58,911 nucleotides of DNA from Candidatus Xenobia bacterium (GCA_045863235.1 BTUM01000005.1:1-58911); one strand, 5' to 3'. Positions 10,528-39,341 are shown, numbered from the stretch's first letter. Translations and numbers: made by a program. Notes: a model not told the origin generated them from the sequence alone.

Positions 10528-11451
10528 ATGAAGCTGCAATTGACCAGTCCGAACGGCTCCTCTCGTCGCCTGGCGGTGCAGGCCTTTGCTCAGGAGGCAA
10601 AGACGGCCTGCCAGCCCGGCAACCTGGTCGAGCTACCCGACCAGGGCTCGGTGCGTCACTACGGCGCCGGTCAACAGATGATCGCCGACCAGGCCATCTT
10701 GCACCCCTACACCGATCAGCCTCCGGGCACGGCCCAGGTGATCGCCGACTGCGACGTGGTTCTCAAAGGCCTGGAGCGCTTCAAGGGCGAGGACGCGGCC
10801 GAGATGCGCCAGTCAGTGGCCTCGCACTGCTCGAAGATGACGAAGCTCGGACTGCTCGCTGCCGGCGGCGGACTGGCCCTGGGCGCCGGGCTCTACTTCG
10901 CCGGGCTGGGCTGGGTGGGAGCGGGCGCGGGCCTGCTGACCGCGGCGGCCGGCCTGGTGGTTACCGAGAAAGAGAAGTCCAAGGCTCGCGAGTTTGAAAC
11001 GCAACTGACCGCGTGGGATCAGGCCATCCAGACCGGCAATCCCCACCGCCTGCCCATCCCCCAGGAGGGGGCGGTGCAGTTCGAATACGTCTTCATGGTG
11101 GAGAAGGCGCACATCCGCGTGAGCCGATCCTACCGCGTGCCCCAGGCGCTGCTCCAGGAGACGCCCGCGCCCACCTGGACGGGAGTGGCTCCCGAGGCCA
11201 GGACGCTGGCCGCTCCCGAGAACGTGGCCAGCGGCAAGTTCACCCAGCAGCGCGAGAAGCCCAGGGGCAAGTTCGACGGTCCCCTCTGGCCCGAAACCGA
11301 CGTGCGCGTGCCCGAGTCACTGGCCGAGACCAGCCGCATGGCCGAGCAACTCGACCCCGAGCGGGCCGCCGCACCGGCCGTGCAGGAGAGCAACGGTCGG
11401 GTCACGGTGGGCGGCATCGCGGTGCGCAAGAAGCAGAAGCCTGCCCAGTAA
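10528..11451 (+). CDS. Hypothetical glycine-zipper membrane protein ending in the shared C-terminal motif (…RVTVGGIAVRKKQKPAQ)
   Basis: The ORF starts at ATG 44 nt after the kinase stop. It has a central Gly-zipper hydrophobic hairpin (GLLAAGGGLALGAGLYFAGLGWVGAGAGLL), and its C-terminal motif is shared with four other proteins in the window. Confidence 0.6.
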   Translation: MKLQLTSPNGSSRRLAVQAFAQEAKTACQPGNLVELPDQGSVRHYGAGQQMIADQAILHPYTDQPPGTAQVIADCDVVLKGLERFKGEDAAEMRQSVASHCSKMTKLGLLAAGGGLALGAGLYFAGLGWVGAGAGLLTAAAGLVVTEKEKSKAREFETQLTAWDQAIQTGNPHRLPIPQEGAVQFEYVFMVEKAHIRVSRSYRVPQALLQETPAPTWTGVAPEARTLAAPENVASGKFTQQREKPRGKFDGPLWPETDVRVPESLAETSRMAEQLDPERAAAPAVQESNGRVTVGGIAVRKKQKPAQ

Positions 11452-11573
11452 GCTTTGATGGGACCAGCCGGTTTCTTCTGACGCCGCACTCCGCTCCGAC
11501 ACTGCTCGTCAGAACGGGCGGGCCGATTCTTCTTCAGCTTCCTTTGAGCCCGCGGCTGCTAACCTGGGGTATC

Positions 11574-36044: not shown

Positions 36045-39000
36045 ATGGACGGAAAGGGCGAGACGCACGCGCTGCAGCGCCATCTCGAGACCCTCTGTCG
36101 GGTCACGGGCAGCGCCTCGGCGGCGCGCTCGGAGATGGAGTTCCTGCTCCAGGTCGCTCCCGACGACCCCGAGGCTCACAAGCGCTACGTCGAGCTCGTC
36201 AAAGCCGGCGACGGAGTCGAGCTCGACAGCCAGCGCAAAGCCTTCCAGGCGCTCGAGCAGAAGAACGAGCCCCAGTTGCACGAGCAGTACCGGCGCTTTC
36301 TCAAGACCTGCGCTCAGCCTTCGGTGGCCTACAACGAGTTCGTCTGGATGGACCAGAGCCTGCCTGCCAGCTCCAGCCGCTCCCGCGGACTCGAGCGCTA
36401 CCGCCGGCTCATCGAGCACTCCGACGGGGTGGGCTGGGAGCAGCGTCGCGCCGCGTTCAAGAACGGGCTGCTGAGCGCCGCCACCCCCAGCGCTCCGCCC
36501 CCGCCTCCGGCCTTGAAGTCGGCTCAGGACGAGATCGCCCGCCTCACCGGCGACAGCGCCCTGGCGGCCCGCGAGCTGAGCGCCGTCATCGCCGCTCTAC
36601 CTCCCTCGGCCGAGCAGGACAAGCAGCTCAAACGCTACGTCAAACTGCTCGAGAAAGCCGACGGGGTGGAGCTTGCGAGCGTGCGGGAGGCTTTCGTCAA
36701 GCTCGAGCAGGCCAACGATCCCAAACTGCGAGAATCCTTCGACAGCCTGCTCAAAGCCTGCGGGGGCAATGCCGCCCGAGCCCTGAGCGAGTGGCGCTGG
36801 ATCGATTCACAGCAGGCCGACATGGGGCGCTACGCCAGGTTGCTCTCTCAGAGCGAGGGGGCTTCGCCCGACCAGGTTCGCAACGCCTACCTGCACCAGA
36901 CCGACGAGAAGGCCCAGCCTCCCCGCCTCAAGCGAGCTCACCAGGAGATCACCCGGCTGACCGGGGACGAGAGCCTGGCCAGCCGCGAGCTGGACGCCCT
37001 GGTGGCGGCCCTGCCCCCCAGCGCCGAGCCCGACAAGCAGCTCGACCGCTACCTCGACCTGGCCGAGAAGGCCGATGGAATGCAGCTTCCCAGCGTGCGC
37101 GAGGCCTTCGTCAAGCTCGAGCAGTCCGGTGACAAGAAAAAGCGCCAGGGTTTCGAGAAGCTGCTGGAAGCTTGCGACGCCGACGCCTCCCGCGCCCTGA
37201 GCGAGTGGAAGTGGCTCGAGACGGTCCAGGGAGACATGACCCGCTACGCCCAGTTGCTCTCCCAGAGCGGCGATGCCAGCACGGCCCAGGTTCACCAGGC
37301 CTACGTCAACCTGCAGGGCCACCAGCTCGGCAAGGGCGAGGTGCAGGACGCGCTGGCCGATGGCTCCATCCTGGGCCTGCGCAAGCTGGGCCTCAACCGC
37401 TCGCTGGCCAGGCTCGAGGATCTGCTCGGCGACCGGGGCGCGGCCGCCCAGGAGCTCCAGTTTGCCCTCTCTCAGGTCAAGCCGGGCCAGGACCAGGGCG
37501 CCGTGATCGGCCGCTACGTGGAGTTGCTCGAGAAGGCTGACGGGGTGGGGGTCGCCAGCGTGCGCGAAGCCTTCCCCCTGACCGAGGACCCGAAGGTCTA
37601 CAGGTCGTTTTTGGCCCTGCTCGAGACCGGTCGTCAGGAGATCGCTCCCGCCCTGAGCGAGCTGAAGTGGCTGGGCCAGAATGCCGACGAGATCGATCGC
37701 TATCGGAGTCTGCTGGAGGTGGCCGGCGAGCGCTCCAGCGCCCTGACGGCCGCCTATCCTATCCTCAAGAAGCTGCCCGCGGGAGCCATCGAGCAGTTGC
37801 GCCCCTTATTGAACCAGGGTCTGCGCGTGGACGAGGCGGCTCGCGACCTGGAGACCCTCTACGCCCATCTCCCGGCCGGCGAGGATCCCGCTCCCGTACT
37901 GAAGACTCTCGAGCGACTGCGGGCCGAGGCGGGTCCTGATCAACACCAGGGGGTCCGAGCGGCTCTGACTCGCCTGCTGAAGGCCCCGGCCGCCGAGCGC
38001 AAGACCCAGGAGAAGAACTACCAGCTTCTGCTCGAGGTGGAGGGAGATCCCACCCTGGCCCTGCAGGACCTGGAGTGGCTGGTGGCCGACAAGCGCGGCG
38101 ATCTGACCCAGCGCACCCGGTCTTACACCAACCTGCTGGCCGAGAGCACCAATTCCCAGCGTGAGCCGATCCGCCAGGCCTTGCAAGAGCTGGCGACCAC
38201 CCCCGGTCCACCTCCGCGCACCGGCCTGTGGACCCGAATCTGGGGCAGCACCTCACGCGAGGAGGCTTTCGAGAAGCTTTACCGGATGCAGGACGGCAAC
38301 GCGGCCCAGGCGATGAAAGACCTCAAAGCCATCGAGTTCCACCTCGACCCCAACGAAGACCTCAAAAGCGCTCTCAAAGAGTTCGAGAAGCTGCTCGAGC
38401 AGACCGGCGAGCCCACTCGAACCCGGCAGGCCTTCGAGGCCATTCGGGGTCGTCCGCCCGAGGAGCGCAAGGAGTTCAAAAAGGAGCTGTTCGCTCTCAC
38501 CGCCGAGCTCGGCGAGCTCGAGCTGGCCCGGCGTTCGCTGCAGGTGGTGCGCGGCTCCAAGAAGGCCGAGGAGCGCCAGAAGCGGATGGAGGCCCTGATG
38601 GGCTGGGTTCAGAGCGAGAAGTCGGCCCCCGCCGGCGTGGCCATGCTGGAGGCCTCGGCCAACCTGATGATCAACAGCCAGGGCATCGGGGCGGCCAGCG
38701 CTCAGGTGACGGCCATGCGCAAGAAGGGCGTGGCTCCCGAGCTTCTGAACACGCTGACTTACGCCGCCGCCCGTTGCTCGCGCATGCCGGGCAGCCCCTA
38801 TCCCACCCCGGACGAGACGCTCTCGCACTATGTGGAGCTGTTCGGCCACGCGCGCAGCGCCAGCGAGGTGAGCGCCATCGAGAAGATCCTGGACGCCCCC
38901 GGGGCCGGCACGGCTCACGACCGTTCGCAGGTGGTGGCCGGCATCCTCAAGGGCCTTTCCCGGGTGGAGGGCTGTCGCGAAGAGCTGGCCTACCTGGGCC

Positions 39001-39341
39001 AGGCCCTCCAGCCGGACGAGTTCCTCTCGGCCGGCAAGGCCTATGCCCACCTCTTCGCCACTATGGGCGCGCACGGGATGGGGGTCGGCGGAGCGCGCAG
39101 GGAGCTGGAATGGGCCCGCGAGTTCAAGCGTACGAAAGTGCCCGCGGCCGATCTCTCCACCATTCTGACCCGGCTCACCTCCAAGATCCTGATCGGGAGC
39201 CCCATCGACAAGGCACGCGCCATGGTGGAGGAAGAGATGAGCGGCGGCCAGATCATCGGCGAGAAGGACGAGTGGGTCATCATCGGCGGCACGCGCGTGC
39301 GACGCGCGCGCGGAGAGGGGGCTCAGAGTGGAGCTGCGTGA
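36045..39341 (+). CDS. Giant alpha-helical repeat protein (at least four ~120-aa internal repeats) ending in the shared C-terminal motif (…EWVIIGGTRVRRARGEGAQSGAA)
   Basis: The long ORF has no recognisable domain. The start is uncertain: TTG 35982 or ATG 36045. Confidence 0.65.
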   Translation: MDGKGETHALQRHLETLCRVTGSASAARSEMEFLLQVAPDDPEAHKRYVELVKAGDGVELDSQRKAFQALEQKNEPQLHEQYRRFLKTCAQPSVAYNEFVWMDQSLPASSSRSRGLERYRRLIEHSDGVGWEQRRAAFKNGLLSAATPSAPPPPPALKSAQDEIARLTGDSALAARELSAVIAALPPSAEQDKQLKRYVKLLEKADGVELASVREAFVKLEQANDPKLRESFDSLLKACGGNAARALSEWRWIDSQQADMGRYARLLSQSEGASPDQVRNAYLHQTDEKAQPPRLKRAHQEITRLTGDESLASRELDALVAALPPSAEPDKQLDRYLDLAEKADGMQLPSVREAFVKLEQSGDKKKRQGFEKLLEACDADASRALSEWKWLETVQGDMTRYAQLLSQSGDASTAQVHQAYVNLQGHQLGKGEVQDALADGSILGLRKLGLNRSLARLEDLLGDRGAAAQELQFALSQVKPGQDQGAVIGRYVELLEKADGVGVASVREAFPLTEDPKVYRSFLALLETGRQEIAPALSELKWLGQNADEIDRYRSLLEVAGERSSALTAAYPILKKLPAGAIEQLRPLLNQGLRVDEAARDLETLYAHLPAGEDPAPVLKTLERLRAEAGPDQHQGVRAALTRLLKAPAAERKTQEKNYQLLLEVEGDPTLALQDLEWLVADKRGDLTQRTRSYTNLLAESTNSQREPIRQALQELATTPGPPPRTGLWTRIWGSTSREEAFEKLYRMQDGNAAQAMKDLKAIEFHLDPNEDLKSALKEFEKLLEQTGEPTRTRQAFEAIRGRPPEERKEFKKELFALTAELGELELARRSLQVVRGSKKAEERQKRMEALMGWVQSEKSAPAGVAMLEASANLMINSQGIGAASAQVTAMRKKGVAPELLNTLTYAAARCSRMPGSPYPTPDETLSHYVELFGHARSASEVSAIEKILDAPGAGTAHDRSQVVAGILKGLSRVEGCREELAYLGQALQPDEFLSAGKAYAHLFATMGAHGMGVGGARRELEWAREFKRTKVPAADLSTILTRLTSKILIGSPIDKARAMVEEEMSGGQIIGEKDEWVIIGGTRVRRARGEGAQSGAA

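Follow-up and report, generated by a model that had tools for sequence, protein, structure and literature searches.

Short terminal tags on unrelated proteins have repeatedly led to dedicated machinery, as with the exosortases, rhombosortase, the type IX secretion system (T9SS) and the encapsulins. Family-1 encapsulin systems are encoded in operons, with the cargo gene followed by the shell gene (PMC7925596), and their targeting peptides centre on GSL (SDGSLGIGSLKRS; native examples are PLTVGSLRRGG and NTGGDLGIRK; PMC7925596, PMC8346489). We analyzed a 58,911-nt stretch of DNA (hereafter the window; GCA_045863235.1, BTUM01000005.1:1-58911; 66% G+C; locus tags AMXMBFR33_09900 to _10130) from a metagenome-assembled genome (MAG) named 'Candidatus Xenobia bacterium', in which five genes, c1 to c5, encode proteins with a common C-terminal tail (the carriers). 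Related contigs are titled 'bacterium CPR1' or 'Candidatus Eremiobacteraeota bacterium'. An original prediction from the sequence had described this tail as φ-x-φ-G-G-φ-x-φ-[RK]-[RK] (φ, hydrophobic residue) and had read it as an encapsulin cargo-loading peptide, with an undescribed C-terminal sorting signal as a fallback. Here we show that the tail is a longer conserved module, borne by many unrelated proteins of this lineage, and we weigh what it may be recognized by.

A conserved C-terminal module of ∼21 residues

Translation of the open reading frames (ORFs) gave five tails identical to those originally reported, at matching positions. A six-frame scan of the window with the motif as a regular expression returned nine matches. 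Five were the carrier tails, 13–19 residues ahead of the stop codon in genes with high G+C content at third codon positions (high GC3), and the remaining four fell in non-coding frames. Among the 38 curated proteins of the window (17,265 aa) the expression matched five times, in 5/5 cases inside the last 30 residues. Shuffled sequences gave an expectation of 0.67 matches overall and 0.04 in tails (Poisson P(≥5) = 8e-10, with a regular expression chosen post hoc).

The motif first described is present in all five tails, but it is too short. Alignment of the tails with those of orthologues delimited a unit of ∼21 residues, G-x-[VI]-x-[EQ]-[EQ]-[GDE]-x-x-[VLI]-x-[VI]-[GP]-G-[VIT]-x-[VL]-x-[RK]-[RK], followed by 0–12 variable residues. 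Upstream of the GG lies a conserved acidic strand (VQEQ-G/D) that was missing from the earlier description. The basic residues follow the GG with a 3-residue spacing, and the first G of the pair can be replaced by P in distant orthologues.

A hidden Markov model (HMM) of the tail was used to scan, as six-frame ORFs, 446 kb of fetched Xenobia-type DNA (redundancy included). All matches of at least 14.8 bits were located 0–11 residues from the stop codon, the sole exception being the internal copy in P0005, a hydrophobic 679-aa protein that carries one internal and one terminal tail; the background did not exceed 6.2 bits. In leave-one-family-out tests with nine families, the omitted tail outscored all 2,671 background six-frame ORFs in 8/9 families (best background ≤6.5 bits throughout), and family F8 was missed.

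An exhaustive profile search of 1.84 billion (1.84e9) representative proteins gave seven matches at E<1e-3. Six were carriers of this lineage, and in 6/6 of these the best-scoring match was C-terminal; the seventh, a beta-propeller repeat protein, was a false positive. The tail is thus essentially restricted to the lineage, where it is known on about 10 non-homologous families. New families (F6–F10) came from other contigs, and F9 is a 220-aa protein encoded directly upstream of a c2 orthologue at two loci (L030 and L031). The other families from such contigs were P0005, the ORF ending in P0009, the product of L020:4900-5664 directly after it, and that of L031:3571-4761. P0009 itself was called at 47 aa and bears a canonical tail; it forms the last part of a stop-to-stop ORF of 207 codons (L020:4187-4810). 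The carrier is probably longer, with its start miscalled. A word-index homology search with the tail alignment returned one 47-aa ORF and missed the query proteins too, a method unsuited to short motifs, and a genome-contig scan with the same alignment gave 126 pattern matches, 0 of which were confirmed by tblastn. Scans for the c4 family in genome and in metagenome collections gave three loci from each.

Tail-less orthologues, which the original prediction had named as the evidence to look for against it, were not what we found: orthologues of c4 and c2 retained the tail. Two c4 orthologues, at 70% and 68% identity, both end in it, and it is kept in a 582-aa c4 relative that is similar (30% identity) in the N-terminal half only. 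Orthologues of c2 at 50% identity end …QEQADKVIVGGVQVPKKG, and paralogue-like relatives at 30–32% identity end …EEANRIILPGTTVARRA, with P in place of the first G.

Predicted fold and the case for a proposed recognition tag

All-vs-all blastp bore out the description of the carriers as otherwise unrelated: no similarity was found besides the tail, except for a weak helical-repeat similarity between c2 (1259 aa) and c5 (1119 aa; E 5e-5). Sequence searches of Pfam, NCBIfam, PADLOC and the PDB matched none of the carriers, and by PADLOC they are not among the known defense proteins. In the five window carriers, residues 1–40 contain no hydrophobic segment; the carriers examined lack Sec-type hydrophobic N-termini, and no transmembrane (TM) segment follows the GG. 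Bilobed hydrophobic stretches of ∼40 residues are present in c1, c3 and P0005, and in none of c2, c4 and c5.

A conserved, lineage-restricted terminal module on orphan proteins without Sec signals is the pattern that targeting signals have historically shown. For this reason our preferred, although tentative, reading is that the tail is a lineage-specific recognition tag that marks a set of effector-like proteins, probably for a non-Sec delivery route. The conservation of the motif, its lineage restriction and the orphan carriers without Sec-type N-termini favor the fallback of the original prediction, a sorting or recognition signal at the C-terminus that had not yet been described. The tail would be a ∼21-residue C-terminal tag on unrelated Candidatus Xenobia orphans that have no Sec-type N-terminal hydrophobic segment, and the tagged set would comprise small hydrophobic-hairpin proteins together with soluble proteins of 220–1300 aa. 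We infer that one common partner may recognize the whole set. The partner that we favor would belong to a non-Sec route of export or delivery, as its receptor or coupling component; export or delivery would be the outcome, and the tag would define an effector-like repertoire. Two further observations count for this reading: the carriers behave as accessory genes, with a context that differs in a ∼95% identical strain and with VWA and toxin-antitoxin (TA) islands inserted here, and a predatory lifestyle has been proposed for the sister family Ca. Eudoremicrobiaceae (PMC9259500).

The fold of the tail was predicted in two AlphaFold2 (AF2) runs, one for c4 with four sequences and one for P0005 alone. 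In both models the motif is built as three short beta strands (aa 463-465, 468-471 and 474-477 in c4), preceded by a linker of low confidence. Strand 1 is predicted to be acidic and strand 2 hydrophobic, and strand 3 ends in the basic pair, so the tag may fold as a small beta meander, in which a turn joins the acidic strand (VQEQ) to the hydrophobic one (VxV) and the GG turn leads on to the strand ending in RR or KK. A PDB profile search with the tail gave nothing significant, the best match being to uL24 ('DDRLVVGGVNLIKRH', E about 1). The c1 tail RVTVGGIAVRKKQKP (11395-11445) likewise resembles the conserved uL24 hairpin, which in E. coli presumably reads KVIVEGINLVKKHQKP; the likeness is not significant and probably reflects convergent beta-hairpin chemistry.

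Several points weigh against a recognition tag for delivery. The term 'effector-like' is argued from missing annotation and from context. The tails of c4 and c5 are weak matches in cross-validation, and the AF2 models are of low confidence (pLDDT 58 for c4 and 44 for P0005). The internal copy in P0005 suggests that a free C-terminus may not be needed. For about 12 carrier loci in other genomes (L003–L031), the genes called up to 10 kb away were checked: neither a partner or secretion machine gene nor a neighbor conserved across lineages was found in these flanks. Finally, an acidic and a basic edge strand suit an association of tail with tail equally well.

This last point leads to the main rival, a docking or oligomerization module in which copies of the tail would pair edge to edge, acidic strand 1 against basic strand 3, with no export involved. 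In that case c1, c3 and P0005, with their membrane hairpins, would serve to anchor the soluble giants (c2, c4 and c5) or to assemble them into one complex. The charge complementarity of the first and last strands is visible in the tail alignment, three short strands are what AF2 predicts, P0005 tolerates an internal copy, and the genes for F9 and c2 adjoin each other in L030 and L031. Single propeller blades and the T4 fibritin foldon offer a likeness in the short beta hairpin at the C-terminus, its D/G turn and the hydrophobic character of its second strand. The only match of the tail profile outside the lineage was to a propeller-repeat protein with blades of the type QQSDGKLVVGG, and the c5 tail EKDEWVIIGG resembles what we take to be the foldon sequence (..KDGEWVLL..). 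However, at 21 residues the unit falls short of every autonomous blade known, AF2 left the two copies in P0005 unpaired (at very low confidence), and a generic oligomerization tag would not be expected solely on lineage-specific orphans. We regard docking as unlikely, although it comes next after the recognition tag.

Encapsulin peptides and other terminal signals

The encapsulin reading starts from a real likeness. As in family-1 targeting peptides, the tail is short, lies near the C-terminus after a flexible linker, and is common to unrelated proteins; its core is hydrophobic-x-hydrophobic-Gly-small-hydrophobic followed by Arg/Lys, so that φ-x-φ-G-[GS]-φ plus basic residues describes the tail as well as PLTVGSLRRGG and SDGSLGIGSLKRS (PMC7925596, PMC8346489). 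As far as the sequences tell, the resemblance is limited to φ-x-φ-G-small-φ plus basic residues. GSL occurs in none of the tails, which instead have V-x-V-G-G-[VIT]-x-[VL]-x-R-R after the VQEQ-G/D block. GG[VIT] thus stands for GSL, the basic residues are displaced by 2–3 positions, and the conserved acidic strand comes in addition. The tail is moreover predicted to form strands, unlike the extended encapsulin peptide.

As originally noted, the window holds no HK97-fold shell gene (no Linocin/HK97 match among its ORFs). No Linocin_M18/HK97 shell (Pfam) was found in the 10-kb flanks either, whereas native systems are cargo-then-shell operons. The carriers also differ from soluble-enzyme cargo such as ferritin-like proteins, DyP or hemerythrin: they are without Pfam domains, c1, c3 and P0005 contain membrane hairpins, and others exceed 1,100 residues. 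Eremiobacterota are absent from the text of a large encapsulin survey, and a literature search on Xenobia or Eremiobacterota with encapsulin, secretion or the motif found nothing relevant. With no shell nearby, no GSL core, membrane-hairpin carriers and an extra acidic strand, the headline of the original prediction is not supported, and it is very improbable that the tails are family-1 targeting peptides that load the carriers into a distal HK97-fold shell.

The tail had also been set apart from GlyGly-CTERM, PEP-CTERM and MYXO-CTERM, rightly: no NCBIfam match was found at E≤1, no hydrophobic or TM segment follows the GG, and the window carriers have no N-terminal hydrophobic segment. Like the signals read by rhombosortase and exosortase, and like MYXO-CTERM, the tail is lineage-restricted, occurs on many unrelated proteins and has Gly-Gly followed by basic residues. 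Unlike them, it has no TM helix between the GG and the basic cluster, and its carriers have no Sec-type N-terminal segment. Double-glycine leaders are N-terminal and go with an adjacent C39-peptidase ABC transporter; the tail differs from them in being C-terminal, and no peptidase-domain ABC transporter was seen beside the carriers. MacB/FtsX-type genes were present in the 10-kb flanks at L020 and L030 only. The C-terminal domains (CTDs) of T9SS substrates are beta sandwiches of ∼80–100 residues, accompanied by a Sec signal, against about 21 residues in the tail, which had no Pfam or NCBIfam CTD match.

C-terminal signals of type IV (and type I) substrates lie in the last ∼20–35 residues and have acidic and basic or hydrophobic features. 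Like such substrates, the carriers are without Sec signals, some are very large, and some have TM hairpins. The signals themselves are loosely defined and disordered, in contrast to the sharp conservation and the predicted strands of the tail. In the 10-kb flanks no coupling protein, ABC transporter or membrane-fusion partner linked to the carriers was found.

Carriers, neighboring genes and a possible effector repertoire

The five carriers of the window are all encoded on the + strand. The first, c1 (AMXMBFR33_09900, 307 aa; 10528..11451), is an orphan protein with a Gly/Ala-rich hydrophobic hairpin of ∼40 residues (aa 107-146); its tail module, PAVQESNGRVTVGGIAVRKKQ (11374..11436), scored 26.4 bits with the full HMM and 18.5 bits on leave-one-out, against a background of at most 6.2 bits. 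c2 (AMXMBFR33_09950, 1259 aa; 16680..20459) is helical with a beta-rich centre and has neither a predicted TM segment nor a hydrophobic N-terminal segment; its module, GSVQEQEDKVIVGGVPVPRRA (20370..20432), scored 29.8 bits (leave-one-out, 24.4 bits). c3 (21514..22053) has 179 aa, or 160 aa if an alternative GTG start is used, with a hydrophobic hairpin at aa 61-102 and the module GVKEGETCVTIGGVPLKKRY (21982..22041; 26.3 bits, leave-one-out 12.3 bits). c4 (AMXMBFR33_09990, 483 aa; 22129..23580) is a soluble orphan protein whose divergent module, GAVRQEGSHLNVGGVRLRVRE (23506..23568), reached 4.0 bits on leave-one-out, while its family member P0004 reached 16.5 bits. The helical-repeat giant c5 (AMXMBFR33_10130; 35982..39341) ends in the most divergent module, GQIIGEKDEWVIIGGTRVRRA (39246..39308; 18.5 bits, leave-one-out a marginal 7.8 bits against a background of 3.3). 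On these leave-one-out scores, c1–c3 are solid members of the set, with c4 and c5 as divergent variants.

It is uncertain where c5 begins (35958-36047). The TTG start gives 1119 aa; other gene calls begin at the ATG at 36045 and give 1098 aa, and the 21 residues upstream of that codon are conserved in L013. A GGAGG lies at 35958, and the in-frame ATT 7 nt on (35970) would give (M)LTALSYRLP... In 'bacterium CPR1' the c5 protein falls into the same 90%-identity cluster as that of the window, and c4 clusters with the 70%-identity orthologue, which points to very unequal divergence of the carriers, to exchange or to MAG mixing.

Many carriers and orphan neighbors have a loose N-terminal pattern in common (MQIRPVSGLP, MQVVPFRAASFP, MQVSAAQIP, MQVSASFSSFP, MITTLSNIPY, MLTSLSNF). 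It was seen in the window at 16680, 21514, 22129, 35970, 39759, 40153, 33749(-) and 32404, and elsewhere in L030:3408-4454(-) and in P0004. It is followed by ∼20 acid-free residues rich in S, P, A and R and, in several proteins (c3, P0004 and the HExxH protein described below), by D-[KR]-V-x-L-S; the N-terminal regions had no Pfam match, FlgM-like or other. This pattern could be a second, N-terminal signal, although its significance is not established.

Five genes of the window have no Shine-Dalgarno sequence: c1, c2, c4, the Ser/Thr kinase (STK)-GGDEF gene upstream of c1 and the ORF 33749-34210(-). Each has TAGGCT, TAGACT, TAGATC or TAAGCT 6–7 nt ahead of its ATG (within 10503-10527, 16655-16679, 22104-22128 and 5504-5528, and above 34210 on the - strand), an arrangement that resembles a -10 element positioned for leaderless transcription. 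GGAGG is present ahead of other window genes, e.g., those at 39759, 40153 and 47376-48692.

The carriers do lie close together in the window, as first described, but their clustering is specific to this strain. In a ∼95% nucleotide-identical strain a YebC gene follows c1, and c4, without c3 at its side, abuts the GH63 gene; that strain also has no VWA gene in the interval from c1 to c2 and no PIN/Phd-AAA_14 island downstream of GH63. Because the context differs in so close a relative, we take the tight clustering of the five to be a feature of this strain. The VWA-domain protein (11604-14354) combines TPR-like helices with a long core of low complexity that is rich in Gln (QQSQNGQQSQQGQQSQNG… repeats). 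Two segments, 23580-25800 and 28585-31816, are strain-specific insertions when compared with the JAANMU contigs. One contains, beside a transglutaminase-like protein, a small ORF with a YHGT…GxGxYF signature and a weak PADLOC match to PD-T4-9_A, which we read as ADP-ribosyltransferase-like from its signature; the other contains DUF218, a PIN/Phd toxin-antitoxin pair and an AAA_14/DUF4143 ATPase that matches the PADLOC candidate PDC-S01. Three small paralogous Gly-zipper membrane proteins (144, 127 and 138 aa; 39328-40572) directly follow c5, the first overlapping its end; the same arrangement recurs in four other assemblies (L013-L016), and the three proteins lack the tail.

Two proteases of this strain bear on whether the tail is a processing site, that is, whether the GG (or the RR/KK) would be cleaved or modified by a dedicated protease, the short C-terminal remainder being removed, perhaps as a step of export. 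One is an HExxH zincin-like protein, 15068-16507(-), and the other the transglutaminase-like protein, 24987-25646(-). A near-invariant G-G followed by a variable remainder of 8–19 residues would suit such a site, and a cut at the internal copy of P0005 would give two products. However, neither protease is a conserved neighbor, the first G is P in distant orthologues, and a peptidase-ABC transporter was not seen beside the carriers. The HExxH protein had been put forward as the processing enzyme; it is beside c2 only in a near-identical strain (L009) and not next to the c2 orthologues in L026, L028, L030 and L031, so it is not a conserved processing partner. We consider processing improbable. 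The HExxH protein (IHHEAGHNL … AEDFAETH) has a poly-Ser N-terminus and GNGT(Q/P)(A/G)GNA repeats, with no Pfam match. A tail-like 'IALIGGNPV' at its N-terminus was discarded, being a GGAGG ribosome-binding site upstream of a GTG start and not protein.

Directly upstream of c1 (by 44 nt) lies the STK-GGDEF gene (5529-10484), which encodes a 1651-aa Ser/Thr kinase-AAA_16-TPR-GAF-GGDEF protein; c1 follows it directly in four assemblies of the same species group. Such a STAND-type AAA_16/TPR protein bears on amyloid signaling of the BASS type (bioRxiv 10.1101/2020.01.06.895854), in which a copy of the motif at the N-terminus of a neighboring NLR-type receptor would template the tail and so activate membrane-targeting effectors. 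Like BASS motifs on Bell-domain effectors, the tail is a C-terminal motif of ∼20 residues on small, possibly membrane-active proteins. Unlike the G/N/Q-rich amyloid motifs, it is rich in charged residues and contains proline, and it is also borne by soluble giants of 1,100-1,300 aa. No N-terminal copy of the motif was found in the six-frame ORFs of the 446 kb, and the adjacent STAND-like protein begins with a Pkinase domain. Amyloid signaling is the least probable of all the readings considered.

We return to the recognition tag and its possible meaning. A more specific version, which is possible but doubtful, is that the tail is the recognition signal of an undescribed or highly divergent delivery system of Xenobia (Eremiobacterota) and defines an effector repertoire of membrane-inserting hairpin proteins and giant helical proteins. 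If so, that repertoire would be readable directly from the genomes of an uncultured phylum. The tail HMM is a sequence handle for listing a coherent protein set among carriers without functional annotation, and phylogenetic profiling across complete genomes could identify the partner that reads the tag. Should that partner be another tail, the module would be a very small natural docking unit; if it is an export system, the tail would provide the first functional grouping of the 'dark' proteins of Xenobia and a testable hint at the lifestyle of these bacteria.

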